Positions 26,307 to 42,355 of a DNA stretch of 64,000 bases are shown here, in pieces. A program made the translations under genes and the position numbers. How positions within the stretch are numbered: position 1 is the stretch's first letter; every line of letters starts with the position of its first letter. Origin of the DNA: an uncultured Alphaproteobacteria bacterium (GTDB lineage Bacteria; Pseudomonadota; Alphaproteobacteria; HIMB59; GCA-002718135). The notes under the pieces are model-generated. The model did no database searches, was not told the origin of the DNA, and was given only the letters and a program-made list of their open reading frames with translations. The DNA is taken from assembly GCA_902595855.1 (NCBI GenBank), contig CACJRY010000003.1, positions 57,098-121,097 of the forward strand. Direction: 5' to 3'.

Positions 26307-27608
26307 ATGACTAAAATTTTAAGATTTACAGTTGAGGATATTAGATTTCCAACATCAAAAGATCTTACAGGCTCTGATGCAATTCATACTGATCCAGATT
26401 ATTCCGCTACATATGTTACTGCTTATACTGATGACTCAAATCTGAAAGGTTATGGAATAGCTTTTACAATAGGAAAAGGTAATGACATTGTTGCAGAGTG
26501 TATTAAATATTTTTTTCCAACTTTTGAAAATATGAATTTGGATGACATAGAAAATGATATTGGAAAACTCTGGTATAAATGCGTTGACCATAGTCAACTT
26601 AGATGGCTTGGTCCTGAAAAGGGAGCAGTCCATATGGCGGTCGCAGCTATATTTAATTGTCTATGGGATTTAATTGCCAAGAAAAATAAAAAACCACTTT
26701 GGAAGTTTGTAGCAGAAAGTGATCCAGAAAAAATACTTAGTTGGTTAACTTTCAAGTATATTGAAGATGTTTTAACCCCGGATCAGGCTTTAAAAATTTT
26801 AAAAGATAGTCAAAATGATAAAAAAGCAAGAATAGATAAAATTTTAAAAGAAGGTTATCCTTCTTACACTACAGCAGCTGGTTGGCTTGGTTACTCAGAT
26901 GAAAAAATAGTAAAACTATGTAAAAAATATATTTCTATGGGTTGGAAACATTTCAAAGTTAAAGTTGGTTTGGATCTAGAGGCCGATGTAAAAAGACTTG
27001 AATTAATAAGAAAGACAATAGGTGATGACTGTCATATTATGGTTGACGCTAACCAACAATGGAGTGTGGAACAATCAATAAAGCATATTAATGCTTATAA
27101 AAAATTTAATTTATTATTTGTTGAAGAGCCTACAAGTCCAGATGACGTACTAGGTTTTGTAAAAATAAAAGCATCAGTAGGAAATGTTAAGCTTGCAACC
27201 GGAGAAGCTTGTGGTGGCAGAGTTATGTTTAAGCAATTTTTAGAGTCAGGATCTATGAATGTGTGCCAAATTGATAGTTGTCGCATTGGCAGCATTAATG
27301 AAATTTTAACTGTAATGCTAATGGCACATAAATTTAAAGTACCAATCTTCCCTCATGCTGGAGGAGTTGGTTTATGTGAGTATGTCCAACATTTATGTAT
27401 GATTGATTATGTACTTATAAATGGAGATAAAAATAATAAATTTGTTGAATATTCTGATCAACTACATGAGCATTTCATATATCCATGTAACTTAAAGGAT
27501 GGTAATTACATGCCACCTTTAGATCATGGATATTCTATTGAAATGAAAGAAAACTCTGTTAAGGAGTTCTCTTATCCTCATGGATTTTATTGGCAGAGTA
27601 ATAAATGA
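26307..27608 (+). CDS. fucD: L-fuconate dehydratase
   Basis: 433 aa, co-linear by eye with Xanthomonas campestris FucD. Shared blocks: IRFPTSKDLTGSDAIHTDPDYSATYV, SQLRWLGPEKGAVHMA, GYPSYTTAAGWLGYSDEK, FKVKVG, VDANQQW, VEEPTSPDDVLG, FPHAGGVGLCEYVQHL. Confidence 0.9.
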   Translation: MTKILRFTVEDIRFPTSKDLTGSDAIHTDPDYSATYVTAYTDDSNLKGYGIAFTIGKGNDIVAECIKYFFPTFENMNLDDIENDIGKLWYKCVDHSQLRWLGPEKGAVHMAVAAIFNCLWDLIAKKNKKPLWKFVAESDPEKILSWLTFKYIEDVLTPDQALKILKDSQNDKKARIDKILKEGYPSYTTAAGWLGYSDEKIVKLCKKYISMGWKHFKVKVGLDLEADVKRLELIRKTIGDDCHIMVDANQQWSVEQSIKHINAYKKFNLLFVEEPTSPDDVLGFVKIKASVGNVKLATGEACGGRVMFKQFLESGSMNVCQIDSCRIGSINEILTVMLMAHKFKVPIFPHAGGVGLCEYVQHLCMIDYVLINGDKNNKFVEYSDQLHEHFIYPCNLKDGNYMPPLDHGYSIEMKENSVKEFSYPHGFYWQSNK

Positions 27609-28342
27609 GACTAACAAATAAAAATATTATAGTAACTGCTGCAGCTCAAGGTATTGGCAGGGCTACTGCAATAGCTTTTGCAAATGAAGGTGCAAATGTC
27701 ATTGCAACAGATATAAATGAAGATAAGCTTAAAGAAATTTCAAAAGAAAATAAAAATATTCAAATGCAAAAACTTGATGCAACTAGCAAAACTGAGGTTG
27801 AGGATTTTTGCTCGAATATAAATGAAATTGACATATTATTTCATGCTGTGGGCTTTGTTCACCATGGTAATATAATGGATTGTGATACTGAGGAATTTTA
27901 TAGATCAGTAAATGTAAATATTTACTCTGCTTATTTAATGACTCATAATTTATTACCCAAGATGCTGAAAAATAAAAAAGGAAACATCATTATAGTCTCT
28001 TCTGCGGCATCAAGCGTAAAAGGTGTACCAAATAGATTTATCTATGGAACAACAAAAGCGGCACTCAATGGGTTTGTAAAAGCTCTAGCCGCAGATTATG
28101 TTGGTCAGGGGATAAGATGTAACGCTATTTTGCCTGGTACAGTTGAAACACCTTCTTGGGAAGGGAGAGTGCAAATGGCTGATGATCCAAAAAAAGCTAG
28201 AGAAGATTTTATAGCAAGACAGGCAATGGGCCGTCTTGCTCAACCAAGTGAGATTGCATCAATGGCACTTTATTTAGCAAGTGATGAATCTGATTTTGTG
28301 ACTGGAACACTTAATTTAATTGATGGAGGATGGACTTTATAA
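27605..28342 (+). CDS. short-chain dehydrogenase, 2-keto-3-deoxy-L-fuconate/rhamnonate 4-dehydrogenase-like
   Basis: 245 aa classical SDR with TAAAQGIGRA and YGTTKAAL (YxxxK). Its position directly after fucD matches the published fuconate operon logic. Confidence 0.7.
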   Translation: MRLTNKNIIVTAAAQGIGRATAIAFANEGANVIATDINEDKLKEISKENKNIQMQKLDATSKTEVEDFCSNINEIDILFHAVGFVHHGNIMDCDTEEFYRSVNVNIYSAYLMTHNLLPKMLKNKKGNIIIVSSAASSVKGVPNRFIYGTTKAALNGFVKALAADYVGQGIRCNAILPGTVETPSWEGRVQMADDPKKAREDFIARQAMGRLAQPSEIASMALYLASDESDFVTGTLNLIDGGWTL

Positions 28343-29190
28343 TGAAAACACTAAGATATAGAATTGGTAATGAGGTTAAGCCAGGAATTTTAGATTCTGA
28401 TGAAAACATACTTGATGCTTCCAGTTTGGTTTCTGATTGGGATAATGAAAATGTAACAACAGATAAGTTGAATGAATTAAAAAATAGTGATTTGAGTTCT
28501 CTCCCAAAAGTAGATAAAATTGATAGTATAGCTCCTTGTGTATGTAAAAAAAGTGTTGGAAAATTTATTTGCATAGGTCTAAATTATTCTGATCATGCAG
28601 AGGAAACTGGAATGGAAGTTCCTCCTGAGCCAATTATTTTTTTTAAAGCTACGAGTGCTATTATTGGACCTAACGATAATGTAATCATTCCAAAAAATTC
28701 TAAAAAATCAGATTGGGAAGTTGAGTTAGGAATTGTAATTGGAAAAGAAGCTAAATATATTTCTGAAGACCAATCACAAGATCATATAGCAGGTTATTGT
28801 GTTGTGAATGATTTAAGTGAGAGAGCTTTTCAATTAGAACATTCTGGACAATGGGTAAAAGGAAAATCTTGTGATACTTTCGGACCTATAGGTCCATATT
28901 TAGTAACTAAAGATGAAGTTTCTGATCCTCAAAATTTATCAATGTGGTTAGAAGTTAATGGAAAAAGGATGCAGGATGGTTCAACCAAAACAATGGTTTA
29001 TGGTGTTAATTTTTTAGTTAGTTATTTAAGTCATTTTATGTCTTTACAGCCTGGTGATATTATTTCGACAGGAACACCACCAGGAGTTGGTATGGGTTTA
29101 AAACCACAGACATTTTTAAAACCTGGTGATGAAATGAAGCTTGGCATTGAAGGATTGGGTACTCAAACTCAAAAAACAATATCTGCATAA
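28342..29190 (+). CDS. fumarylacetoacetate-hydrolase-family protein, 2,4-diketo-3-deoxy-L-fuconate/rhamnonate hydrolase-like
   Basis: FAH-family blocks GLNYSDHAEE, DWEVELGIVIGK and GDIISTGTPPGVG. The ATG at 28342 overlaps the SDR stop (TAATG); the track start at 28330 adds 4 aa. Confidence 0.7.
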   Translation: MKTLRYRIGNEVKPGILDSDENILDASSLVSDWDNENVTTDKLNELKNSDLSSLPKVDKIDSIAPCVCKKSVGKFICIGLNYSDHAEETGMEVPPEPIIFFKATSAIIGPNDNVIIPKNSKKSDWEVELGIVIGKEAKYISEDQSQDHIAGYCVVNDLSERAFQLEHSGQWVKGKSCDTFGPIGPYLVTKDEVSDPQNLSMWLEVNGKRMQDGSTKTMVYGVNFLVSYLSHFMSLQPGDIISTGTPPGVGMGLKPQTFLKPGDEMKLGIEGLGTQTQKTISA

Positions 29191-30344
29191 TGTTTGGTGG
29201 AATAGAAAATTGTCATAACGTTAAAGATTTTAGAAAATTAGCTAAAAAAAAATTACCAAGTCCCATTTTTCATTACATTGATGGCGCGGCTGATGATGAG
29301 ATTACTTATAAAAGAAATACAGATTCTTTTGACTCATGCGATTTAGTTCCTAATGTTTTATCTGGAGTAGATAAAATTGACATGTCTACAACAGTTATGG
29401 GACAAAAAATTGATATACCTTTGTATTGTGCTCCAACTGCTCTTCAGCGATTATTTCATTATGAGGGTGAAATCGGTGTTGCTAAAGCGGCTGAAAAATA
29501 TGGCACCATGTTTGGCATTTCCTCTTTAGGTACAGCGAGTATTGAAGAAATATCAAATTTAGTATCAACACCAAAATTATTTCAATTATATGTTCATAAG
29601 GATGAGGGTCTAAACAAAGATCTAATTGATAGATGTAAAAACTCAAATTTTGAAGCTATGGCAGTAACAGTAGATACAGCTGTTGGAGGTAATAGAGAAA
29701 GAGATCTTAAAACAGGTTTTACAATACCAATGAAACTTTCTTTAAGTAGTGCTATTAGTTTTGCCACACACCCATCATGGGCCTTTAATTATTTTACAAA
29801 ACCTAAATGGGAATTAAGCAATTTAAAAAATCATATTGCAGCAGGAACAAGTGTAATGACAAGCATAGGTGATTATTTTACTCAGATGTTAAATAATTCT
29901 CTTGATTGGAAAGGAGTTGAAAAAATTAATAAAGAATGGGGCAAACAATTTGCTATTAAAGGAATTATGTCTGTAGAGGATGCAAAAAAAGCAGTTGATG
30001 TTGGAGCAACTGCAGTAATGGTTTCAAATCATGGAGGAAGGCAACTTGATGGATCAAGATCACCATTCGACCAACTTGCCGAAATAGTTGATGCTGTTGG
30101 TGATAAAATTGATGTTATTTGTGAGGGAGGAATTCGAAGAGGTACACACGTTTTAAAAGCTTTATCACTTGGAGCGAAAGCCTGTTCAGGAGGGAGAATG
30201 TATCTTTATGCATTGGCTGCCGGAGGACAAAAGGGAGTTGAAAAAACTTTATTTAATCTTAAAAATGAAATTGAAAGAGATATGAAATTAATGGGCGTTT
30301 CTTCAATTGATCAATTAACGCGAAAAAATTTAAAGTTTAGATAA
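29190..30344 (+). CDS. lldD: FMN-dependent alpha-hydroxy-acid dehydrogenase, L-lactate dehydrogenase-like
   Basis: 384 aa with the family block VSNHGGRQLDG. TAATG overlap with the hydrolase gene. L-lactate is the expected product of the upstream hydrolase. Confidence 0.7.
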   Translation: MFGGIENCHNVKDFRKLAKKKLPSPIFHYIDGAADDEITYKRNTDSFDSCDLVPNVLSGVDKIDMSTTVMGQKIDIPLYCAPTALQRLFHYEGEIGVAKAAEKYGTMFGISSLGTASIEEISNLVSTPKLFQLYVHKDEGLNKDLIDRCKNSNFEAMAVTVDTAVGGNRERDLKTGFTIPMKLSLSSAISFATHPSWAFNYFTKPKWELSNLKNHIAAGTSVMTSIGDYFTQMLNNSLDWKGVEKINKEWGKQFAIKGIMSVEDAKKAVDVGATAVMVSNHGGRQLDGSRSPFDQLAEIVDAVGDKIDVICEGGIRRGTHVLKALSLGAKACSGGRMYLYALAAGGQKGVEKTLFNLKNEIERDMKLMGVSSIDQLTRKNLKFR

Positions 30345-30387
30345 AATAAATATTTATTATTTTTAAAATTTATTCTACAATTTTTTT

Positions 30388-30708
30388 ATGAATTTAGAAA
30401 TAGAGCCAGTACATATTGGTCAGGAAGATGACATTGATGTTGGAAGTGTAGAAAATTTTGAACATGAGGAAATAGATTATGCTATTTTTCGCTTAGAGTC
30501 TGGCTTCTTTGCAACTCAAGGGCACTGCAATTGTGCAGACCAAGCCTTTTTAAGTGAAGCTAATGTTGAGGGGGAAGAGCTTGAGTGCGCTAGTTGTGGA
30601 AATACATTTAGTATAGTATCTGGAGATCCCATAAGTGATCCTGAATTACTAGCATTAAAAATTTTTGATATATATGAAGAGGATGGAGACATTTTTTTAA
30701 ATCTCTAA
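30388..30708 (+). CDS. small Rieske-fold-like protein with four Cys in place of the 2Cys/2His ligands
   Basis: 106 aa. The pattern is C47-N-C49-x17-C67-A-S-C70, spaced like the Rieske motif C-x-H-x15-17-C-x-x-H. Flanking sequence (YAIFRLESGFFATQGHC ... IFDIYEEDGDIFLNL) resembles Rieske-type ferredoxins. Confidence 0.5.
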   Translation: MNLEIEPVHIGQEDDIDVGSVENFEHEEIDYAIFRLESGFFATQGHCNCADQAFLSEANVEGEELECASCGNTFSIVSGDPISDPELLALKIFDIYEEDGDIFLNL

Positions 30709-31673
30709 GTTTTAATTTCTAATCTATTAACAATATTATCTGAATTTAATTTACTATCTTTATTTAAGAAATAAATAGTATTTTCAGCAGCTTCTATTGA
30801 CATCCTTTTTCTGCACTCTAATGTTAAAGCAGCATTGTGTGGTGAGAGTAATACATTAGGTAGTTTAAAAATCGGGTGATCTTTATTTGGTGGCTCTATC
30901 TGAAACACGTCCAAAGCTGCACCTCTTATTTTTTTTTCCTTGAGTGTTCTTTCTAAATATTTTTCATGAATAATTCCACCTCTTGCTGTATTAACAATAA
31001 TAGCTGTATCCTTCATAATTAAAAACTCATCTTCACTAATAAAGTTTTTAGTTTTATTATTTAATGGCAGATGTAAGGAAATATAATCAGCTAATTTTAA
31101 ACCTTCAATTTTATCAGATACTTGATACCCATATTTTTCTATTTCTTCTCTATCAATAAATGGATCAACAACATAAATATTCATATCAAAACCTTCACAT
31201 CTCTTCGCTACTTCTTTGCCGATCCTTCCAAAACCAAATATAACTGCATTTTTTTTAAATAATTCAAAAAAATTAGGCAGAGATGATTTCTCACTAAATC
31301 TACCTTCTCTCGTTAGTTTATCAGATAAATGAATATTTTTAGTTAGATATAAGAAGGAAGTTAAAACATGTTCTGCAACACTTATTGCATTAGATTTAGA
31401 AGTTATTCCAAGTGCAATTTTATTTTTATTTAAATATTCTAAATCGACATTATCATATCCGACTCCATGTCTTGTTATAATTTTTAAATTATTACAGTAT
31501 TCAAGAACTTCAGAATGCAAATTTGCAGTCCGTAGAATTATACCATCAACGTTTATTAATTCTTTTTTAAGATTTTCTTCTTCAAAATCGTTAATTTCAA
31601 AGCAATCAAAATTCTCTTTTTTCAGGATTTGCCATCCATCTTCATGAATTTCTCCCATTATTGCTATTTTCAT
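30705..31673 (-). CDS. D-isomer-specific 2-hydroxyacid dehydrogenase
   Basis: 322 aa with blocks GFGRIGKEVAKR, ARGGIIHEKYL, DVFQIEPP and SPHNAALT. Confidence 0.85.
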   Translation of the reverse strand: MKIAIMGEIHEDGWQILKKENFDCFEINDFEEENLKKELINVDGIILRTANLHSEVLEYCNNLKIITRHGVGYDNVDLEYLNKNKIALGITSKSNAISVAEHVLTSFLYLTKNIHLSDKLTREGRFSEKSSLPNFFELFKKNAVIFGFGRIGKEVAKRCEGFDMNIYVVDPFIDREEIEKYGYQVSDKIEGLKLADYISLHLPLNNKTKNFISEDEFLIMKDTAIIVNTARGGIIHEKYLERTLKEKKIRGAALDVFQIEPPNKDHPIFKLPNVLLSPHNAALTLECRKRMSIEAAENTIYFLNKDSKLNSDNIVNRLEIKT

Positions 31674-31794
31674 TGTTTTTTTATAATATTTTAATTGTTA
31701 AATTGAAATCATTTGTAACAAAAAAAATTAAATAAATAACTATTCTAAAAATTATTTTTCTTGTAGAAAAGTTATAAACTATATTGAGGAAGAT

Positions 31795-33639
31795 ATGAAA
31801 ACTATAAAATTATCATGTTCGCACGCTTTATTAAAATATTTAATTGCACAAAAAATAATAATTGATGGAAAAAAAGCTCCCTTATTTCCTGGTGCTTTTG
31901 GTATTTATGGGCATGGTAATGTTGCTTGTATTGGTCAAGCAATGGAAGAATTTCAATCTGATTTGCCAGGATATCGTGGGCACCACGAACAAAACATGGC
32001 TTTAACTGGAATTGGTTATTCAAGAGCCATGCGTCGCAAACAAATATTTATTGCTACTTCGTCTGTTGGTCCTGGATCAACAAATATGGTTACTGCTGCT
32101 GCTGTAGCTTTGAGTAATAGATTGCCTCTTCTCTTAATACCAGGTGATACTTTTTCTAGTAGGTTTCCAGATCCTGTTTTGCAACAAGTTGAAAACTTTA
32201 ATTCTCCTACTGAAACACAAAATGATGCATTTAAGTCTGTTTCAAGATATTTTGACCGCATTACAAGACCAGAACAAATTTTATCTTCACTTCCACAAGC
32301 TATTCAAGTTATGTTAGATCCTGCGGATTGTGGGCCTGCAACAATTTCAATGTCCCAAGATGTGCAAGGTGAAGTTTATGATTATCCAGAAGTTTTTTTT
32401 GAAGAAAAAATTCATCAAATAAGAAGAATTTATCCAGATCCTGATCAGTTAAAAGTTGCTGTAGAAAAAATTAAACAATCAACACAGCCAATTATTATAT
32501 CTGGAGGAGGAGTTTTATATTCAGAGGCAGAAAAAGAATTATCTGATTTTGCTAAAAAACATAACATTCCAGTTACATCAACTGTTATGGGAATTGGCTG
32601 TATGACTCATGACAACCCATACTACATTAGTGCGATTGGATGTTTGGGAGAAGGTTCATCGAATAATTTATCTAAAGATACCGATTTAGCTATTGCAATT
32701 GGTACAAAATTAGCGGATTTTACAACAGGTTCGTGGACAAATTTCCAAAATCCAGATTTCAATTTAGTTTCAATTAACACATCAAGATTTGATACAACAA
32801 AACATAGAGCTGCACCCATAGTAAGTGATGCTAAAATTGGCTTACAACAATTATCGGAAGCCCTTGGTGATTGGAAAGCTCCCAATAAATGGTATGAAAT
32901 AGCTATTGAGGAAAGAAAAAAATGGGACTCATATGTTCAAAAAGAAAGCGGTCCTACTAATCAAGAAGTTCCTTCCTATGCTCATGCGGTAGGAGCTGTA
33001 TATCGAAATGCGGATCCTTCAGACATTGTTGTTACTGCTGCAGGTGGTTTAGTTGGTGAGGTTGTTCAAATTTGGAAACCCAAACAATTAAATACTTTTG
33101 AAACAGAATGGGGCTTCAGCTGTATGGGTTATGAAATTTCAGGAGCACTTGGAATTAAAATGGCTAAACCTGATCAAGATGTAGTAGTCTTTGTTGGTGA
33201 TGGATCATATCTTTTACACAACAGTGATATTTATAGTTCTGTTTTATACGATCAAAAATTAATTATTGTAGTTTGTGATAATGGAGGCCACATGGTTATA
33301 AACAGATTACAACTAGCTAAAGGTGGAAAAGAATATATCTGTAATTTGAGAGCTGCGAGAGCAAAAAATTTACAATTTGTTGATTTTGAGTCACACGCAA
33401 AAAGTATGGGCGCTAACTCTGAGAGAGTTAAATCTACATCTGAACTTGAAGCTGCATTTAAAAGAGCAAAAGACTCAGATAAAACATATGTAATTGTTAT
33501 GGAAACTCATGGTTATGAATGGCTAGATGGAACTGCATTTTGGGAGAGCCCAACCTTGATGAATGCGACAAATGAAAACACCAAAAAAGCTCTTGCAGAG
33601 CACACGGAGGGTAAGAGCAAGCAGAGAAAAGGAGTTTAG
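31795..33639 (+). CDS. iolD: IolD-like TPP-dependent 3D-(3,5/4)-trihydroxycyclohexane-1,2-dione hydrolase
   Basis: 614 aa, co-linear by eye with B. subtilis IolD (GHGNV, STSSVGPGSTNMVTAAA, PDPVLQQVE, SRYFDRITRPEQ, ISMSQDVQGE). TPP motif GDGSYLLHNSDIY...CDNGG. RBS GAGGAAG. Confidence 0.85.
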   Translation: MKTIKLSCSHALLKYLIAQKIIIDGKKAPLFPGAFGIYGHGNVACIGQAMEEFQSDLPGYRGHHEQNMALTGIGYSRAMRRKQIFIATSSVGPGSTNMVTAAAVALSNRLPLLLIPGDTFSSRFPDPVLQQVENFNSPTETQNDAFKSVSRYFDRITRPEQILSSLPQAIQVMLDPADCGPATISMSQDVQGEVYDYPEVFFEEKIHQIRRIYPDPDQLKVAVEKIKQSTQPIIISGGGVLYSEAEKELSDFAKKHNIPVTSTVMGIGCMTHDNPYYISAIGCLGEGSSNNLSKDTDLAIAIGTKLADFTTGSWTNFQNPDFNLVSINTSRFDTTKHRAAPIVSDAKIGLQQLSEALGDWKAPNKWYEIAIEERKKWDSYVQKESGPTNQEVPSYAHAVGAVYRNADPSDIVVTAAGGLVGEVVQIWKPKQLNTFETEWGFSCMGYEISGALGIKMAKPDQDVVVFVGDGSYLLHNSDIYSSVLYDQKLIIVVCDNGGHMVINRLQLAKGGKEYICNLRAARAKNLQFVDFESHAKSMGANSERVKSTSELEAAFKRAKDSDKTYVIVMETHGYEWLDGTAFWESPTLMNATNENTKKALAEHTEGKSKQRKGV

Positions 33640-33726
33640 CTCAGAAAGCTTGAAATTGCTTATTTTTCATATTCTAAAAAAAATAACTCGTCTTTACTTT
33701 CTATGATAAAATTTATTATTTTTTAG

Positions 33727-33738
33727 TAAAACGTTTTA
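33727..33738. promoter_or_regulatory. perfect 12-bp palindrome TAAAACGTTTTA upstream of the binding-protein gene (LacI-type operator-like core AACGTT)
   Basis: Read directly from the sequence, about 100 nt upstream of the ATG at 33837 in the longest intergenic spacer of the window. No LacI-family gene is present in the window. Confidence 0.3.
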
Positions 33739-33836
33739 TTAATTAACAACATTTTTCAATTTATACTTGATTTACTTATTGCTCTGAATATTAGTAAATG
33801 GTTAATTATTAATAATTTAACTATTTAGGAGGAAAT

Positions 33837-34742
33837 ATGAAAAAATTTCTACTTTCAATTGTGGCTCTAGTATTCATTACTAGTTCTGCGTACGCTGAGA
33901 GATACGTAATGGTAACTCACGGTGAAGGAAAAGACCCTTTTTGGCCGGTAGTTCAAAAAGGTGGTGAAGATGCAGCTCGTGCAATCGGTGCTGACTTTGA
34001 ATATATATACAACCCTTCTGCTGATATGGCTGATATGGCTAGCTCAATTCAAGCTGCTGCGGCAACTCAACCAGATGGTATGGTAATTTCACTTCCAGAT
34101 CCAGATGCTTTAGGCCCAGCTATTAAAGCTGCTGTTGCAGCTGGTGTTCCAGTAATCACTATGAACTCCGGTTTAGAAAACTCTGCTGCACTTGGTGCCC
34201 TTATGCACGTTGGACAGCCAGAATATCTTGCTGGTCAAAAAGCTGGTGAAAGAGCAAAAGCAGAAGGTGCAACAAAAGCACTTTGTATGATTCAAGAAGC
34301 ATATAATACGGCTCTTGTAGATAGATGTGAAGGTTATGGTGAAGCAGTTCCTATGGAATTCACTGACACTACTTCAGACCCTGCTACTATTCAAACTCGT
34401 GCTACTGCTGCATTACAAGCAAATAGTGATGTTGACGCTATTCTTTCAGTAGGACCTCATGTTTGTGAAGCTGTTGATAAAGCAGTTGCTGATCTTGGTA
34501 TGACAGTTCACCATGCTTGTTTTGATTTAAGTCCTGCAGTTATGGACCTAATCAATGCTGGTAGAGTGTCTTTCACTATTGACCAACAACAAAGATTACA
34601 GGGTTATATGCCAATTATCGTATTACACCTTTATAATAACAGTGCTGGACTTCTTCCAGGAGCTAACATCCCTTCAGGACCAGGCTTCGTTGATAAGTCA
34701 AACGCTTCTTCAGTTGCTGCTCTTGCAGGAATTGATAGATAG
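33837..34742 (+). CDS. periplasmic sugar-binding protein, CUT2 (ribose/fructose-type, Peripla_BP) family
   Basis: 301 aa with signal peptide MKKFLLSIVALVFITSSAYA and a strong RBS AGGAGG. The protein is Ala-rich and the gene is visibly GC-richer, with biased codon use suggesting high expression. Confidence 0.85.
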   Translation: MKKFLLSIVALVFITSSAYAERYVMVTHGEGKDPFWPVVQKGGEDAARAIGADFEYIYNPSADMADMASSIQAAAATQPDGMVISLPDPDALGPAIKAAVAAGVPVITMNSGLENSAALGALMHVGQPEYLAGQKAGERAKAEGATKALCMIQEAYNTALVDRCEGYGEAVPMEFTDTTSDPATIQTRATAALQANSDVDAILSVGPHVCEAVDKAVADLGMTVHHACFDLSPAVMDLINAGRVSFTIDQQQRLQGYMPIIVLHLYNNSAGLLPGANIPSGPGFVDKSNASSVAALAGIDR

Positions 34743-34755
34743 TTTATTAGTTTAA

Positions 34756-34781
34756 GGGCCGATTAATCGGCCCTTTTTTTT
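34756..34781 (+). terminator. intrinsic terminator/attenuator between the binding-protein and permease genes
   Basis: GGGCCGA-TTAA-TCGGCCC stem-loop followed by eight T. It starts 14 nt after the SBP stop and ends 8 nt before the permease ATG. Confidence 0.8.
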
Positions 34782-34789
34782 ATTTATAA

Positions 34790-36385
34790 ATGAATACATC
34801 AACTTCAAATCAACCTAGACAAGAGTCGGATCGACAAGGTCAAAAAAAATGGTATTCCGCTATTACATCACGTCCAGAAATTGGCCCGTTTGGAGTAATG
34901 CTTTTACTTTTCTTTATGTTAGGATACTTCTCTATTCCAGAGGGGCAATTTTCTCTCAACCCATTTGCTGGAGAAGGTTTTAATGCTCTAGGTATAAGAA
35001 ATAATTTTAGAGTTATTGCACAGCTTGGTATAGTTGCTCTTGGAGCTGGGATGCTGATCATTGCTGGTGAATTCGATTTATCAGTTGGGTCTATGATAGG
35101 TTTTGCTGGTGGATGTATGGCGATGATACTCAAATGGGGATTTGCAGTAGTTATTCCTTATATCTCTTTTGACGGCGGTTTTCATTTTGAAGGTTTAAAA
35201 ATATTTGAAATTACAAATGTCTCCCCTTTAACAGCTTTACTAATTACATTGTGTTTTACACTAGCATTTGGTTGGTTTCAGGGATGGCTTATCGTAAAAA
35301 GTGGAATAGCATCTTTTATTGTTACACTAGGTGGATTGTTTTTTTTAAGAGGGGTCACAGAAGTTTCTTACAGAGCATTTAATCGTGCTCCTGATCAAAC
35401 AGCAGGTTCTACAACAGTAACAGAACTTCCAGATATAAAAAATATCATTAATGTTCCAGGACATGGAGAAATGGAAAGAGATGCAGCTAAGATGTTGCCA
35501 AATGATCAGCTATTAGAAATATTGAGTAATGTTCCAGCCAATACTGTTGCCAAGTTAACGGAACAACTCACTTATATAAATGAAAAAGTTGCAGCTAGTA
35601 AGACTGCTCTAGCTTCTAAAAAAATGATTGATACACTAGAAAACTCTCTTGCTGGTGCAAAAAAATCAGGAAATGACTCCATGGTAGAAATTTTGACAAA
35701 AAAAATTGAAGCTGGTGTTGAAGTTCCTGCAGTTGCTGCAAAAGCAGTGACTGATATAGATATAGCAAAAGCTTACATTGATACAATTTATACTGCTAGA
35801 CCTGTAGCAAATTTTTTTGGTGGCGATATTATGGAGCCTGTTTTTGATTGGTTGTACTTTACAGCAGATTGGAATGTAAATAATTATGGAAATATTTTTG
35901 CAAAAGGAATGTATTCATGTTTAATGATATGGTTGCTTTTAGCATTAGTTTGTTATTTTGTATTAAGTAGAACACAAGCTGGTAACTGGATTTATTCAAC
36001 AGGAGGAAATCTTAGTGCAGCTCAAGCCAATGGTGTTCCAACAAACAAAGTTAAAATTTCCTTATTTATGTTTACAGCATTCTGTGCAACCATGTTCGCT
36101 GCTTGTCAAGTATTTGAAGTTAACACAGCTGATACAGCTAAAGGTAATTTAAAGGAATTAGAGGCAATTGCTGCGGCTGTTATTGGTGGCGTTGTACTTA
36201 CTGGAGGTTTTGGAACAATACTAGGGATCATCCTAGGGACAATTATTTTTGGTATAGCAAAAGAAGCCTTCTTTTATATTCCTGGCATTGATGGATCTTT
36301 CTACAGAGTATTCCTTGGCGCAGTACTTGTTGCCGCTGCCCTAACAAATGAGAATATTAGGAAAAGAATAATAGGTAGCATTTAA
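34790..36385 (+). CDS. CUT2-type ABC sugar permease (RbsC/FrcC-like) with a large inserted hydrophilic loop
   Basis: 531 aa. Typical family blocks: AGEFDLSVGS, GGNLSAAQANGVPTNKVK, LEAIAAAVIGGVVLTGGFGT. Residues about 198-373 between hydrophobic segments 5 and 6 are hydrophilic. Confidence 0.85.
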   Translation: MNTSTSNQPRQESDRQGQKKWYSAITSRPEIGPFGVMLLLFFMLGYFSIPEGQFSLNPFAGEGFNALGIRNNFRVIAQLGIVALGAGMLIIAGEFDLSVGSMIGFAGGCMAMILKWGFAVVIPYISFDGGFHFEGLKIFEITNVSPLTALLITLCFTLAFGWFQGWLIVKSGIASFIVTLGGLFFLRGVTEVSYRAFNRAPDQTAGSTTVTELPDIKNIINVPGHGEMERDAAKMLPNDQLLEILSNVPANTVAKLTEQLTYINEKVAASKTALASKKMIDTLENSLAGAKKSGNDSMVEILTKKIEAGVEVPAVAAKAVTDIDIAKAYIDTIYTARPVANFFGGDIMEPVFDWLYFTADWNVNNYGNIFAKGMYSCLMIWLLLALVCYFVLSRTQAGNWIYSTGGNLSAAQANGVPTNKVKISLFMFTAFCATMFAACQVFEVNTADTAKGNLKELEAIAAAVIGGVVLTGGFGTILGIILGTIIFGIAKEAFFYIPGIDGSFYRVFLGAVLVAAALTNENIRKRIIGSI

Positions 36386-37164
36386 TGGAAAGAAAACCAC
36401 TAATAGAAATAAAAGATTTAGTTAAAAAATTTGGATCTTTTACGGCTTTAAATGGTGTTTCTTTAGATGTTTATCCAGGTGAGGTTCATGCACTCTTAGG
36501 AGATAATGGTGCAGGTAAATCAACCTTAATTAAGGTGCTTTCAGGAGTTCACCCAATGACAAGCGGAGAAATTAAAGTTGATGGAGATACAGTCAATTTT
36601 ACTTCTCCTAGACAAGCTTCTGATGCAGGTATTGGAACTGTTTATCAAGACTTGGCATTGAATGCTTTAACATCTGTTACTAGAAATTTTTTTCTTGGTC
36701 GAGAGATTAAAAAAGGACCAGGCCCATTTGGTTTAATGCAAATGGACGAGATGGATAAAATAACTTCCGAAGAAATGTCAAAAATTGGAATAAATATATC
36801 TGACCTAAATCAACCAGTGGGAACGATGTCTGGTGGTCAAAGGCAAACTTTGGCAATTGCAAGAGCAATTTATTTTGGTGCTAAAATATTAATATTAGAT
36901 GAACCTACATCCGCGTTAGGTCAAAAGCAGCAAATGGAAGTTTTAAAAACTATAAAAAAAGTTCAACGTCTTGGAAATATTGCAATCATATTAATCACAC
37001 ACAATGAAATTCATGCACGCCTAATAGCTGATCGATATACTTTTTTAAGTTTAGGTGAAGTAATTGGTTCAGGATTGTCCTCTGAACTTGGCGGTGAAGA
37101 TGTTAAGAGATTGATGGCTGGTGGTGCAGAAATTGGCGATCTTGCTAAAGAATTAGAATTATAG
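36385..37164 (+). CDS. ABC transporter ATP-binding protein, single-NBD CUT2 type (FrcA-like)
   Basis: 259 aa with Walker A GDNGAGKST, signature MSGGQRQ and Walker B ILILDEPTSAL. It overlaps the permease gene by 1 nt. Confidence 0.88.
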   Translation: MERKPLIEIKDLVKKFGSFTALNGVSLDVYPGEVHALLGDNGAGKSTLIKVLSGVHPMTSGEIKVDGDTVNFTSPRQASDAGIGTVYQDLALNALTSVTRNFFLGREIKKGPGPFGLMQMDEMDKITSEEMSKIGINISDLNQPVGTMSGGQRQTLAIARAIYFGAKILILDEPTSALGQKQQMEVLKTIKKVQRLGNIAIILITHNEIHARLIADRYTFLSLGEVIGSGLSSELGGEDVKRLMAGGAEIGDLAKELEL

Positions 37165-37198
37165 TTTTTTTTTATTTTTTTTCATTTAAAATTTATCA

Positions 37199-38047
37199 AT
37201 GCAGAAATTCTTGAAAAATAGTTTTAATATTAATGAAGCGTTAAATGAATTAATGCACGAGTCTGGAGTTATAGTTATTGAAAATGTCTATAACTTAAAT
37301 GATATCAAAGAAGCAAGAGAGATTGTTAATCATTTTGCAGATACGCAAGAACAAAAAGAGTCTCACTTTAATGCGGAGGCTGAAGCATCTGGTAAAATTA
37401 AGCTTCAACAAAGGGTTTGGAATTTATTTGGCAAGGGAGAAGTTTTTAGTAAATTAATTTCAGATGATATTGTTTTTAGTTTAATGTCTAAACTTTTAGG
37501 ATCAGAATTTTTTTGTGGATCTTACTGCGCAAGTAGATTACTACCAGGTTCTCCAGGACAGGAACTTCATCTAGATTATCCATATTGGGATTTTTATAAT
37601 ACCGAGACTTTTCCTATGGGTCTTAATAGTTCATTTGCTCAAAATTGTCAGGCAACAATACCTCTGGATGTTTGTTCAGAAGAATCAGGAGCAACAGCTT
37701 ACATACCAAGATCTCAAAAAAAATTACACTATCCAAATGAAAATGATGATTTTTCAAATAGACAACAAATGATTGCAAATCCTGGAGATTTAGTTTTTTT
37801 TAATGGCAACTGCTGGCATGGAGCCTCACCTAATAAATCAAATCACCAAAGAGCAGCATTATTGATTGAGTTCCTTCCTAAATACATAAAACCAGTTGAA
37901 GATTTAGTCACATATTTATCTGACGAGTTTAAAAATAATTCAAATCCAAAAGTGCGACAACTTTTAGGATTAAATTATGAATATCCAAAAATTATGGATG
38001 TTAGTAAAAAAACAAATAATATTGGTTTAGGTTACAAAGCTAAATAA
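37199..38047 (+). CDS. phytanoyl-CoA dioxygenase (PhyH)-family Fe(II)/2-oxoglutarate oxygenase-like protein
   Basis: 282 aa with facial-triad pattern ELHLDYPYW (H-x-D) and CWHGASPN (distal His), plus a following Arg (NHQRAAL). Confidence 0.7.
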   Translation: MQKFLKNSFNINEALNELMHESGVIVIENVYNLNDIKEAREIVNHFADTQEQKESHFNAEAEASGKIKLQQRVWNLFGKGEVFSKLISDDIVFSLMSKLLGSEFFCGSYCASRLLPGSPGQELHLDYPYWDFYNTETFPMGLNSSFAQNCQATIPLDVCSEESGATAYIPRSQKKLHYPNENDDFSNRQQMIANPGDLVFFNGNCWHGASPNKSNHQRAALLIEFLPKYIKPVEDLVTYLSDEFKNNSNPKVRQLLGLNYEYPKIMDVSKKTNNIGLGYKAK

Positions 38048-38102
38048 AATCTATATTTTTAAGTTAAATTCACTATAAATATTTTAAAATAATAGAATCA
38101 GA

Positions 38103-39248
38103 ATGAAAAACATTGGATTAATAGGATGTGGAAATATTGCTGAAACATATTTTCGATCACAGGATTATTTTAATAATATAAATTTTGTAGCATGCGCTGA
38201 TAAATTTCATGAAGCTGCAATTAAATGCGCTGAACAAAATAAAATTACAGCATTATCAGTTGATGAAATTCTAAAAGATAAGGATATTGATATAATTCTT
38301 AATCTAACAATACCACAAGCACATTTTGAAGTTTCAAAACTAGCCTTAGAGTCTGGCAAGCATGTGTATAGTGAAAAACCAATGTCAATTACATATGATG
38401 ATGCAAAATATCTTCTAGAATTAGCAAGCAAAAATAATCTTTATTTTGGAAATGCTCCAGACACTTTCCTAGGTGGAGGAGGTCAATTATCAAGAGAATT
38501 GGTTGACAAAGATGAGATTGGTAAAATTTTAACAGGAAATTTTATTTTTGCTTTCCCTGGAGTTCATGAATTTCACCCTAATCCAGAATCGTGGTTTCAA
38601 GTTGGTGGTGGTCCTGTAATTGATATGGGACCATATTTTTTCACAACTCTTGTTAATTTGTTAGGACCTGCAAAAAATGTAAGAGCGAGAGGAAAATTGT
38701 TTTCTAATCAACGTGAGTATTTAGTTGGACCTAAAAAAGGTAAATTTTTTGATGTTGAAATACCAACATCCGTTATGTTCGATGTAGAATTTGTGAATGA
38801 AGCTATAGTCCAAGGCTTTATATCATTTGATGTCCAAAATCATGCAAGAAATCATATGGAGTTGTATGGAACTAAAGGATCTTTAGTTGTTCCTGACCCA
38901 AATATGTTTGGAGGACCTGTTCAACTTTCACATGAGCTTGGATCTGAATGGAAAGACCTTTCGGTTGAAAAAAAATACTTAGGTAAAACTAATATTATAA
39001 ATCATAGTGGCCGTAGCAATGAAGCGCCTAGGCAATCAAACTATAGAGGTTTTGGATTAGCTGAAATGATTTACTCAATTGAAAATAATCGTAAGCATCG
39101 CTGTAATGATCAGTTAGCTTTACACGTGTTAGATTTAATAGAGTCTACAATTCTTGCTGCTGAGTCAAAAAAAGAAATTCAGCTAAGATCATCATGTGAA
39201 CAACCAAAGCCCATTACTGAAGAGGAGATAAAAATATTACTAAAATGA
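38103..39248 (+). CDS. Gfo/Idh/MocA-family NAD(P) oxidoreductase
   Basis: 381 aa with N-terminal IGLIGCGNIAETYF Rossmann motif and the EKP block (YSEKPMS). Confidence 0.8.
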   Translation: MKNIGLIGCGNIAETYFRSQDYFNNINFVACADKFHEAAIKCAEQNKITALSVDEILKDKDIDIILNLTIPQAHFEVSKLALESGKHVYSEKPMSITYDDAKYLLELASKNNLYFGNAPDTFLGGGGQLSRELVDKDEIGKILTGNFIFAFPGVHEFHPNPESWFQVGGGPVIDMGPYFFTTLVNLLGPAKNVRARGKLFSNQREYLVGPKKGKFFDVEIPTSVMFDVEFVNEAIVQGFISFDVQNHARNHMELYGTKGSLVVPDPNMFGGPVQLSHELGSEWKDLSVEKKYLGKTNIINHSGRSNEAPRQSNYRGFGLAEMIYSIENNRKHRCNDQLALHVLDLIESTILAAESKKEIQLRSSCEQPKPITEEEIKILLK

Positions 39249-40480
39249 TTGATGTTGAAAAAATTGAAAAAAAAATAATAAAAGAAAAAAAATTTTTGAG
39301 GGATAAATCTCAAAATTATAATAATAATTTTTTAAATATTCAAAAATATATCGAAAAAGAAATTATAAATATTGAAGAATTAAAAAAAAATAATTTGAAT
39401 ATTATTCCTGAAATAAATTTGAATGATTTAGAATCTAATTCAGAAAAATTTATTGCTGAAGTAAAAAACAGAGGTTGTGTCGTTATTAGAGATGTATTTG
39501 AAGACAGTATGATGAAAAAAATGAATACTGAACTTGAGACTTATATTGAAGAAAATAATTATTATGAAGATCAAAAGAAGAAAGCAAATATTGATAATTA
39601 CTTTAGTGATCTTAAGTCAGGTAAACCTCAGATATTTGGCTTGTATTGGTCAAAAACACAAGTAAACATTCGACAAGCATTAGAATTAGAAAAAGTAAAA
39701 AAATGGCTGAATCATCTATGGCAGTATAAAGATAATAATAATGATTTAATTTTTGATCCAAATAATGAGCTTGTATATGCAGATAGAGTAAGAAGAAGAG
39801 AGCCAGGTGACTCAACACTTGGGTTATCACCTCATTGTGATGCTGGTTCTGTGGAGCGCTGGATAGATAGAGGCTATCAGTCTGTTTATGAAAAAATATT
39901 TTCTGATGATTTTGAAAATTATGATCCATTTAATGCTACTTTTAGAAATACCACTCAAATGATAGAATCTCCCGCAGTTAGCCATGTATTTAGAACTTTT
40001 CAGGGTTGGGTTGCTCTTACTGAACAAGGTCCTGGGGATGGAACATTGCAATTAATACCTATTGCGAAGTCTATGGCTTACATCTTAACTAGAGCTTTGA
40101 TGGATGATGTTGATGAGTCAAATTTATGTGGTTCTAAACCTGCTCGTGCATTATCAATTAATAGTAAATACCATGCTTTATTGTTAAGAGGACTTGTCTC
40201 TATTCCAAAAATGAAACCAGGGGACACTGTCTGGTGGCACCCTGATATAGTTCATGCAGTAGAAGATATGCATTCCGGACAAGGATATTCAAATGTAGTT
40301 TATGTAGGGTCAACACCCTATTGCAAAAAAAACTTGGAGTATTCAAAAAAACAAGCTCAAAAATTTTTGGAAGGTAAAAGTCCACCTGATTTTGCTCCCG
40401 AGGATTATGAAGTGAGTTATAAAAATAGAGCTACGTTAGATGATCTTACTCCTCTTGGAAAAAAACAACTCGCTTTGTAA
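39245..40480 (+). CDS. DUF1479 (YbiU-like) protein, putative Fe(II)/2OG oxygenase fold
   Basis: 411 aa, similar in size to E. coli YbiU as I recall it. Blocks LSPHCDAGSVERW (H-x-D) and WWHPDIVHAVE. It overlaps the oxidoreductase stop by 4 nt. Confidence 0.6.
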   Translation: MIDVEKIEKKIIKEKKFLRDKSQNYNNNFLNIQKYIEKEIINIEELKKNNLNIIPEINLNDLESNSEKFIAEVKNRGCVVIRDVFEDSMMKKMNTELETYIEENNYYEDQKKKANIDNYFSDLKSGKPQIFGLYWSKTQVNIRQALELEKVKKWLNHLWQYKDNNNDLIFDPNNELVYADRVRRREPGDSTLGLSPHCDAGSVERWIDRGYQSVYEKIFSDDFENYDPFNATFRNTTQMIESPAVSHVFRTFQGWVALTEQGPGDGTLQLIPIAKSMAYILTRALMDDVDESNLCGSKPARALSINSKYHALLLRGLVSIPKMKPGDTVWWHPDIVHAVEDMHSGQGYSNVVYVGSTPYCKKNLEYSKKQAQKFLEGKSPPDFAPEDYEVSYKNRATLDDLTPLGKKQLAL

Positions 40481-40503
40481 TTTATTTTTATTCATAATAA
40501 ATT

Positions 40504-40929
40504 TTACCAAGACCCATTATTTTCCATTGAAGCCCAGGGCTCTTTTATTGGAAGAGCTTCACCCTCTTGAAGTATTTCAATAGAGATATTATCTGGAGAT
40601 TTTATAAATGCCATGCGCCCATCTCTAGGCGGTCTATTAATAGTAATGCCATTTTTAATTAAACGTTCGCATGTTTCATAAATATTATTCACACTATAGG
40701 CTAAGTGTCCAAAATTTCTTCCACCAGTATATTCTTCAGGATCCCAATTATATGTTAATTCAAGTAAACCAGTTTTTTCATCACTATTTTCAGCTCCAAG
40801 AAAAATAAGCGTAAATCTTCCTTTTTCACTTTCCTTACGTCTTACTTCTTTAAGACCCAATTTATTACAATAAAAATCAATAGACTCCTCAATATTTTTT
40901 ACTCTTACCATAGTATGCAAATATTTCAT
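40504..40929 (-). CDS. gloA: lactoylglutathione lyase (glyoxalase I)
   Basis: Core sequence [26 protein letters not shown] ... ELTYNWD ... FGHLAY ... IEILQ is typical of GloA. Start set at the internal ATG at 40929; the track start at 40983 adds 18 Lys-rich residues. Confidence 0.85.
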
Positions 40930-41041
40930 TTTTACCTCAATTTTTAATTTCTTATCCGAAATTTTTTTACGTAATTCTACCATATATTTTAAAATATAGT
41001 ATGTTTTAAAATTGTTTATACGAATATATCTGGAGGAATAA

Positions 41042-42355
41042 ATGAGTGACTATTTTAAGAATATTAATGAAATAATTTATGAAGGACCTGATAGTGACAA
41101 TCCTTTAAGCTTCAAATATTATGATGAAAGCAAAAAAGTGCTTGGAAAAACGATGAAAGAACATCTTCGTTTTGCAACATGTTATTGGCACACATTTACT
41201 TGGCCTGGGTTAGATCCGTTTGGAGGTGCAACATTTGAAAGACCATGGATGTCTGGAGAAGAACCTCTTAAAATGGCAGAAATGAAACTTGATGAAGCTT
41301 TTGATTTCTTTGCAAAAATAAAAACTCCTTTCTTTTGTTTTCATGACAGAGACATTTCTCCTGAAGGAACATCGTATAAAGAAACTCAAAAGAATTTTCT
41401 TCATATTATTGATTTGATGGAATCAAAAATGGAGTCTTCTAATGTTAAGCTGTTGTGGGGAACAGCAAATGCCTTTTCTCACAAACGATACATGAGTGGT
41501 GCATCAACAAATCCTGATCCTGAAGTATTTGCATATAAAGCTGCTCAAGTGAAAGATTGTATGGATGCAACTAAAAGATTAGGTGGTGCTAATTATGTTC
41601 TTTGGGGAGGTAGGGAAGGATATGAAACAATTCTTAATACAAATATGAAATTAGAGATCAATAACTTAAAACGATTTCTCGAACTTGTTGTAGATTACAA
41701 GCATAAGATTGGTTTTGACGGTCAAATCTTACTTGAGCCTAAACCGCATGAACCGACTAAACATCAATATGATTTTGATGCAGCTGCATGTTTAGCTTTT
41801 CTTAGAAATGCAGGCTTAGAGAATGAAATAAAATTAAATATTGAAGCTAATCACGCAACATTATCAGGACATAGCTTTGAGCATGAAATTGCTTATGCAA
41901 TTGCTAACAATGCACTTGGAAGTCTAGATATTAATAGAGGAGATACCTTGTTAGGGTGGGATACTGATCAATTTCCAAATAGTGTTGGTGAGTTAATTCT
42001 TCCTTTTTATCATATTTTTTCAAATGGAGGCATTGGAAATGGAGGGTTAAACTTTGATGCGAAAATTCGAAGACAATCAATAGAGCCTGAAGATTTATTT
42101 TATGCCCATATTGGTGGTATGGATATATGTGCTAGAACACTTTTAGCAGTTGAAAAAATGATCAACGATAAAAAAATCTCTAATTATGTTGCACAAAGAT
42201 ATGAGGATTGGCAAAAAGATCTTGGGCAATTTATCCATGATAAAAGTACTTCTCTTGATGCGATTCATCAAAAAGTCCTTGATGGTAATATTGAGCCTGA
42301 GCCAAGATCTGGAAATCAAGAGTATTTAGAAAATATTTTAAATAAGTACTTATAG
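41042..42355 (+). CDS. xylA: xylose isomerase
   Basis: 437 aa class II XylA with blocks [22 protein letters not shown] and [17 protein letters not shown]. Confidence 0.92.

Follow-up and report, generated by a model that had tools for sequence, protein, structure and literature searches.

What does a soluble insert of some 120 residues do in the membrane subunit of a small sugar-type importer? Large soluble domains are rare in the permeases of ATP-binding cassette (ABC) importers, and the well-studied case, MalF-P2, changed the view of binding-protein docking. The question is raised by a permease gene in a 64,000-nucleotide stretch of DNA (the window) from an uncultured alphaproteobacterium of the HIMB59 lineage (assembly GCA_902595855.1, contig CACJRY010000003.1, positions 57,098 to 121,097). 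The gene belongs to a three-gene CUT2 importer consisting of a substrate-binding protein (SBP), a permease and an ATPase, and its product has an unusually long loop between transmembrane (TM) helices 5 and 6. The extra domain in this loop might be a periplasmic cradle or receptor that flanks the docking site of the SBP, a reading that is favoured here at somewhat less than even confidence. The gene is described as follows.

34790..36385, + strand: permease gene, 531 amino acids (aa), BPD_transp_2 / CUT2-type (TC 3.A.1.2), 10 predicted TM helices

The protein belongs to the BPD_transp_2 / CUT2 family and is unusual in having an accessory domain. PF02653 (BPD_transp_2) matches it with 114.1 bits (gathering cut-off 26.8) in two stretches with the loop between them. 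The NCBIfam models of named CUT2 permeases (GguB, YjfF, RbsC, MglC, AraH, LsrC/D and AlsC) all score far under their cut-offs, the top one being GguB with 129 bits against a cut-off of 450, and they align to the C-terminal half only, from about aa 372. A Kyte-Doolittle scan (19-residue windows, segment threshold 1.5) finds five hydrophobic segments upstream of the loop and five downstream. A preliminary description of this DNA had reported an extra hydrophilic loop of about 175 residues at 35381-35908, coordinates that correspond to aa 198-373, in a 531-aa CUT2 permease, and the landmarks that it quoted (GGLFFLRGV, MYSCLMIWLLLALVCYFVL and a helical stretch) are all present in the translation of the gene. 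It was also right that the loop contains no hydrophobic run: the hydrophobicity of aa 198-373 peaks at 1.03, and thus no TM helix is hidden in it. As for composition, these 176 residues include 23 Ala, 14 each of Asn, Thr, Ile and Lys, 13 Val, 12 each of Asp and Leu, and 11 Glu, so that the reported richness in Ala holds and that in Lys, Glu and Thr is only roughly right.

The lengths of this loop and of a second variable site, the stretch between TM3 and TM4, were counted between invariant glycines G188 and G373 and between W116 and P146, respectively, in the permease, in two insert-bearing clades and in insert-less relatives.

This permease and its clade (clade A): TM5-TM6 loop 183-184 aa (184 in this protein), TM3-TM4 stretch 29-30 aa
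Clade B: TM5-TM6 loop 234-264 aa, TM3-TM4 stretch 20 aa
Closest short relatives: TM5-TM6 loop 59-60 aa, TM3-TM4 stretch 10 aa
E. coli XylH: TM5-TM6 loop 88 aa, TM3-TM4 stretch 6 aa
E. coli RbsC: TM5-TM6 loop 31 aa, TM3-TM4 stretch 4 aa

The long loop is real, and the loop is indeed far shorter in ordinary relatives. Alignment with the short relatives divides it into about 65 aa of conserved base and a lineage-specific insert of about 120-125 aa (aa 219-337), which reduces the novel part from the reported 175 residues to about 120. The parts are arranged in the following order.

35357..35443, + strand: N-terminal loop base, aa 190-218, TEVSYRAFNRAPDQTAGSTTVTELPDIKN; partly common to short relatives and of low entropy in clade A
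35444..35602, + strand: insert part 1, aa 219-271, a predicted small beta-hairpin, the module MERxxAKxLPxxxLLxIxxxxP and the first half of a 44-residue helix
35603..35722, + strand: insert part 2, aa 272-311, a clade-A-specific helical finger predicted as a helix to 293, an SGN turn at 294-296 and a helix at 296-308
35723..35800, + strand: insert part 3, aa 312-337, a linker and a predicted helix at 322-330 (VTDIDIAKAYIDT), leading back to the loop base
35801..35908, + strand: C-terminal loop base, aa 338-373, PVANFFGGDIMEPVFDWLYFTADWNVNNYGNIFAKG; two predicted short helices ahead of TM6, partly alignable with short relatives
35138..35224, + strand: small TM3-TM4 insertion, aa 117-145; a predicted long beta-hairpin with strands 118-126 and 132-141

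The short relatives retain TEV..R..N..STQ.SGL.DFK in the N-terminal base and FGGE...W......GFNLN in the C-terminal base. Within the insert, R230, A233, L236 and L241 are nearly invariant, R230 across both clades, and part 3 is kept in clades A and B and absent from the short relatives. The small TM3-TM4 insertion had been missed by the preliminary description. It co-occurs with the large insert across three clades and tracks it, the W116-to-P146 stretch being longest in clade A and successively shorter in clade B, in the short forms and in RbsC and XylH.

On which side of the membrane does the insert lie? The answer depends in part on the next loop.

35972..36049, + strand: conserved TM6-TM7 loop, aa 395-420, TQAGNWIYSTGGNLSAAQANGVPTNK; predicted helices 396-405 and 408-413

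This loop after TM6 contains the motif T..G..IY..GGN..AA...G, in which T395, G398, I401 and G405 do not vary, RbsC and XylH included, in either of the alignments made, and Y402, G406, N407 and A410 are invariant in one RbsC/XylH alignment and nearly so in the larger one. From family knowledge, it is taken here to be the cytoplasmic coupling region. The five helices that precede the insert, the Lys plus Arg counts of the tails (five in the N-terminal tail and three in the C-terminal one) and the coupling motif in the following loop together make a periplasmic location of the large insert well supported, as the preliminary description had proposed from the five preceding segments and a basic N-terminus. 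On the predicted topology, the TM3-TM4 hairpin would also face the periplasm.

The long loop is rare and conserved where it occurs. An alignment scan with the loop only found relatives encoded in 177 of 185,579 species genomes (one genome per species), and a loop-only HMMER search of 1.84 billion cluster representatives returned 44 clusters, nearly all of which are fragments of this permease; the full-length representatives that stood out were P0122 (531 aa) and P0152 (564 aa). The insert is absent from the plasmids in PLSDB, where the best relatives fit the two halves of the core into about 370 aa. Because so few clusters were found, and no insert-bearing plasmid, the long loop is not shared family-wide, in agreement with its description as an oddity. 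Among full-length proteins, hundreds of close relatives of 525-543 aa have source names such as Pelagibacter, SAR324, Deltaproteobacteria and Puniceispirillales. Gene-level counts are based on the best 80 of the 177 genomes, which were fetched. Each of these 80, among them cultured HIMB and HTCC8051 isolates and complete chromosomes, matches all 184 loop residues in one uninterrupted segment, and 72 of the 80 loci, from SAR11, SAR116, SAR324 and MarineAlpha5, have an intact open reading frame (ORF) of 528-540 aa. In the window, the GC content passes smoothly through the loop region into its flanks.

Ratios of nonsynonymous to synonymous substitution rates (dN/dS), calculated by the Nei-Gojobori method over 150-200 pairs of the fetched genes, are 0.081 for the whole insert and 0.039-0.044 for the TM core. 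The three parts of the insert give 0.088 (aa 219-271), 0.114 (aa 272-311) and 0.099 (aa 312-337), and the TM3-TM4 insertion gives 0.157. The most constrained part of the protein is the loop base, with 0.021 on the N-terminal side and 0.031 on the C-terminal side. The insert is thus under laxer constraint than the core and yet clearly under purifying selection. It is retained in complete SAR11 genomes of only 1.36-1.54 Mb, and both the large insert and the TM3-TM4 hairpin are conserved across SAR11, SAR116 and SAR324.

AlphaFold2 models were made of monomers only, for the full-length permease on a 74-sequence alignment and for the loop alone. The full-length model has ten long helices, a mean predicted local distance difference test score (pLDDT) of 78.8 and a predicted TM-score (pTM) of 0.78, and the loop reaches a pLDDT of 80-86. 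DSSP assigns to the modelled insert two strands (219-222 and 226-229) and helices at 230-234, 238-246, 250-293 (44 residues), 296-308 and 322-330, and the short helices 338-344 and 349-357 precede TM6. When the loop is modelled alone, pLDDT is 84-93 over aa 219-334 and below 50 in the loop bases, a pattern that predicts an autonomous domain on bases that need the membrane core. The insert is accordingly modelled as mostly alpha-helical and is predicted to fold independently. A Foldseek search of the insert model against the PDB gave generic helical matches with a best E value of 1.0 and no MalF structure among them; Pfam has no domain at E <= 0.1 on aa 219-337, and NCBIfam gives a single chance-level match on the loop (E 0.005). 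No relative of the large insert or of the TM3-TM4 hairpin could be detected among the domains described so far. The permease itself matched no PDB chain in sequence or in profile searches, and by these searches no CUT2 permease appears among the solved structures.

The relatives with longer inserts or without any insert bear on where the domain came from. A search seeded with P0152 found clade B (552-599 aa; P0152 and P0165-P0180; locus L004:6001-7725), with the source names Geminicoccaceae, Alphaproteobacteria (metagenome-assembled genomes) and Pseudomonadota, and two short relatives, P0220 (384 aa) and P0230 (375 aa). Clades A and B are about 62% identical in the core and share the insertion site, the loop base, one insert module and the three-gene unit. 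Their inserts are related (hhalign probability 99%, E 8e-18) through the MERxxAKxLPxxxLLxIxxxxP module with the helix after it and the returning helix VTDxDxAKxYxDT. Clade B differs in its longer loop, in an extra N-terminal piece of about 85 aa that bears cysteines, in a shorter TM3-TM4 insertion and in the lack of about 36 residues of the clade-A finger, which are unmatched in the profile-profile alignment. Two cysteines are invariant in 16 of 16 clade B inserts, and their spacing suggests a disulfide; the pair would fit an oxidising compartment and hence the predicted periplasmic side. The clade A insert is free of cysteine, and the loop base of some clade A sequences has one at aa 193.

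The short forms (P0220, P0230 and a 378-aa protein of the S. meliloti plasmid pSmeMABNR56a) are 58-68% identical to the permease in the core and keep the order of SBP, permease and single-domain ATPase, with SBPs 61-62% and ATPases 72-75% identical to those of the window; they differ in being without aa ~222-338 and most of the TM3-TM4 hairpin. In a neighbour-joining tree of the core (285 ungapped columns, RbsC and XylH as the root, 300 bootstraps with an explicit count of monophyly), the short forms group with clade B in 89% of the bootstraps, and clades A and B stand together in 5%. Loss of the insert in the short forms is the simplest reading, given the homologous module in the inserts of both clades. 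Secondary loss, and with it an insert that is accessory and not essential, is a tentative conclusion, and long-branch effects are possible because the outgroup is distant (30% identity) and the composition of SAR11 is biased. The S. meliloti plasmid locus (L086:5986-7122) was considered as a characterised short homologue and discarded, being an unannotated locus in one PLSDB record with no experimental data linked to it.

Two further sequences resemble the insert in content or in position. P0155, a 192-aa protein on a 1,052-bp metagenome contig (L085:117-695), has 29% identity to the insert (E 1.2e-8). Stop codons abound on either side of it, no frame there encodes permease sequence, and the protein could be either a stand-alone version of the domain or a degenerate fragment; as a singleton in a set of 5.8 billion proteins, it defines no family. 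E. coli XylH (L002:4721-5899) has extra sequence at exactly the TM5-TM6 position of the insert. This consists of two hydrophobic TM-like segments (aa 176-195 and 214-236) with RGRMRRQ between them, presumably two additional membrane helices and not a soluble domain. CUT2 permeases thus seem prone to insertions in the TM5-TM6 loop.

How could a domain at this site act? Provided that the type II (BtuC-like) fold is also that of CUT2 permeases, the loop between TM5 and TM6 would be the periplasmic gate region that touches the docked SBP. The CUT2 permease AraH has been listed as a putative type II permease, and in type II importers TM5/5a form the periplasmic gate, whose loops extend towards the pocket of the binding protein (PMC4245157). 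The best Foldseek matches of the whole model are type II importers, namely MolB/HI1471 (2nq2, probability 0.94), BtuC in BtuCD-F (2qi9, 0.82) and BhuU (5b57). These importers (BtuCD-F, MolBC/HI1470-71 and BhuUV) resemble the permease in having ten TM helices and are its best, though weak, structural match; they differ in that they show no sequence similarity to it and have a short gate loop and cluster A binding proteins, whereas the SBP here is of cluster B (Peripla_BP_4). The two inserts of a permease dimer, helical fingers included, would then flank the docking site and form a cradle or receptor for the SBP. Such a cradle could keep the SBP on the transporter, or favour its closed, ligand-loaded form over an excess of empty protein.

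In function, the cradle would correspond to the MalF-P2 loop, a periplasmic immunoglobulin-like loop of about 20 kDa that wraps MalE and stays in contact with it throughout the cycle (PMC4245157). Like the insert on its predicted topology, MalF P2 of MalFGK2-E is a large (about 180 aa) periplasmic domain between TM helices of a permease and is present in part of its family only. MalF P2 differs in that it lies between TM3 and TM4 of a type I permease (BPD_transp_1), has an Ig-like beta fold and binds its SBP, whereas the insert lies between TM5 and TM6 of a BPD_transp_2 protein, is predicted to be mostly alpha-helical and has no sequence or Foldseek similarity to MalF P2. In the literature, no description was found of long loops in CUT2 / BPD_transp_2 permeases or of this SAR11 system. 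A stronger form of the cradle reading is rather unlikely. In it, the insert would be the first receptor domain for a binding protein in a CUT2 or type II-like importer, a helical structure that keeps the SBP on the transporter and selects its closed, loaded form from a large excess of empty SBP in the periplasm of oligotrophic plankton; SAR11, SAR116 and SAR324 would have retained it, and plasmid-borne homologues, among them that of S. meliloti, would have lost it.

Several observations weigh against a cradle. A role in docking, tethering, gating or sensing, the last three of which the preliminary description had suggested, is proposed from position only, by analogy with MalF-P2 and the type II gate, and the type II superposition behind it is weak, with E values of 0.12 or above and TM-scores of 0.29-0.48. 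The SBPs of a short-form locus (L003), the window and a clade B locus (L004) are of equal length and 62-64% identical, and this likeness with or without the insert means that the SBP has no matching extra domain; nor does it show any obvious sign of co-adaptation. Nowhere does the protein vary more than in the middle of the insert (entropy 1.59, compared with 0.47), which also differs greatly between clades A and B. The core tree nests insert-less forms within the insert-bearing group, which makes the insert dispensable for transport as such, and a domain at the gate could also hinder docking. The position of the insert at the predicted gate, the purifying selection on it in small SAR11 genomes and the close natural relatives without an insert, which could act as controls, make it a handle on the coupling of SBP and transporter in the high-affinity uptake systems of abundant ocean bacteria, and binding tests are feasible because the isolated insert is predicted to fold alone.

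A second possibility, to which a smaller though appreciable likelihood is given, is that the insert acts on the transporter itself, as a periplasmic cap or second gate or as a superstructure that stabilises the dimer, which could limit back-leak or hold the homodimer together at nanomolar substrate. The location in what is the periplasmic gate loop of type II importers is as expected from such a role, as are the extreme constraint on the flanking loop bases (dN/dS 0.02-0.03) and the lack of any matching change in the SBP, and the co-occurring periplasmic hairpin could pack with the insert. However, a confidently predicted autonomous fold with a protruding finger resembles a binding module more than a plug, and the related systems with short forms work without it.

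It is improbable that the insert instead docks or senses another partner, such as peptidoglycan, an outer-membrane or regulatory protein or a second binding protein, and so links transport to signalling or to a position in the envelope. The 44-residue helix (about 66 Å if straight, an estimate that takes 1.5 Å for each residue) and the finger could extend into the periplasm, the SGN tip of the finger shows reduced variability in clade A, and polar or charged positions (R230 and K271/T272) are conserved in the insert. On the other hand, no extra gene consistently accompanies the transporter, its neighbours differing between the window, L003, L004 and L086, and searches with NCBIfam, Foldseek/PDB and Pfam gave no similarity of the insert to known sensor or peptidoglycan-binding domains.

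Slightly less probable still is a tolerated expansion that has no specific function and is kept since changes would disturb the folding of the gate loop. Should the insert prove to have no role in docking, it would come down to a lineage-specific decoration of an otherwise ordinary sugar or polyol importer. Its apparent loss without replacement in the short forms, its variable middle with clade-dependent length and content, and the acceptance of other insertions at the same site, such as the hydrophobic segments of XylH, are all compatible with this. It accords poorly with a dN/dS of 0.09-0.11 across all three parts, with the retention of the insert in the small SAR11 genomes and with the preservation of a module in two clades whose cores share only about 62% identity, together with the invariance of the clade B cysteines. 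That the long loop is an artefact, be it a chimera, a mis-called ORF, cryptic TM helices or a mobile element such as an intein, has a negligible probability and is rejected on the intact ORFs in 72 of 80 genomes with isolates and complete chromosomes among the 80, the continuous GC content, the hydropathy below 1.5 in every window, the lack of a Pfam domain in the insert and the purifying selection in frame, so that neither the hidden helices nor the frame disruption in other assemblies that the preliminary description had considered was found.

The other two members of the unit flank the permease gene.

33837..34742, + strand: SBP, 301 aa, Sec signal peptide (MKKFLLSIVALVFITSSAYA, followed by ER), Peripla_BP_4 126 bits, cluster-B sugar type
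36385..37164, + strand: ABC ATPase, 259 aa, one nucleotide-binding domain, single ABC_tran match

Of 83 loci, 78-81 keep the triad of SBP, permease and ATPase in this order, whether or not the permease has the insert. The ATPase aligns with the first half only of the 500-aa CUT2 models (e.g., 3-243 of 510 in AlsA), in agreement with the preliminary description of one permease with one half-size ATPase, and its single domain presumably implies a permease dimer with two copies of the ATPase. The fused two-domain ATPase of about 500 aa (RbsA/XylG type) is not the form found here, which makes the system a minority variant of CUT2 and does not exclude it from the family. The FrcBCA-type fructose transporter of Sinorhizobium also has a half-size ATPase, and its permeases are of ordinary length. 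As in the system of the window, a single permease goes there with a single-domain ATPase of about 260 aa and not with the fused type. The ATPases of the short-form and clade B systems are likewise single-domain proteins of 259-281 aa.

The best NCBIfam model for the SBP is that of the rhizopine SBP (NF052284; 237.9 bits, under the cut-off of 420), and its closest solved structure by sequence is 4RU1 (E 7e-48). In a survey of SAR11 binding proteins, the one sugar-binding protein characterised was SAR11_0769, a glucose binder (PDB 8HQQ; PMC11485210). Identity of this protein with the SBP of the window was rejected, as 8HQQ is missing from the PDB matches of the latter, and the two belong to different systems. 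The substrate is judged from the neighbouring genes.

31795..33639, + strand: IolD (3D-(3,5/4)-trihydroxycyclohexane-1,2-dione acylhydrolase), TIGR04377 766.8 bits, cut-off 715
37199-40480: downstream neighbours, namely a PhyH-family dioxygenase, a GFO/IDH/MocA dehydrogenase and a Gig2-like (PF07350) protein; unusual company for IolD

The iolD and dehydrogenase genes point to a cyclitol or polyol (inositol-like) as the probable substrate. No other iol model scores above its cut-off among the neighbours scanned (27605-42355), and the catabolic route may therefore be non-canonical. IolD adjoins the transporter in 15 of 83 loci, L081 and L082 having another arrangement, and a xylose isomerase is encoded further downstream of the transporter in the window. 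The genes for the SBP and the permease (33750-36500) have a GC content of 0.36-0.43, compared with 0.22-0.34 in neighbouring genes, and the permease is 79% identical to proteins source-named SAR324 and Deltaproteobacteria. The raised GC content and this identity may reflect gene transfer among marine plankton, or a constraint on the composition of conserved genes.

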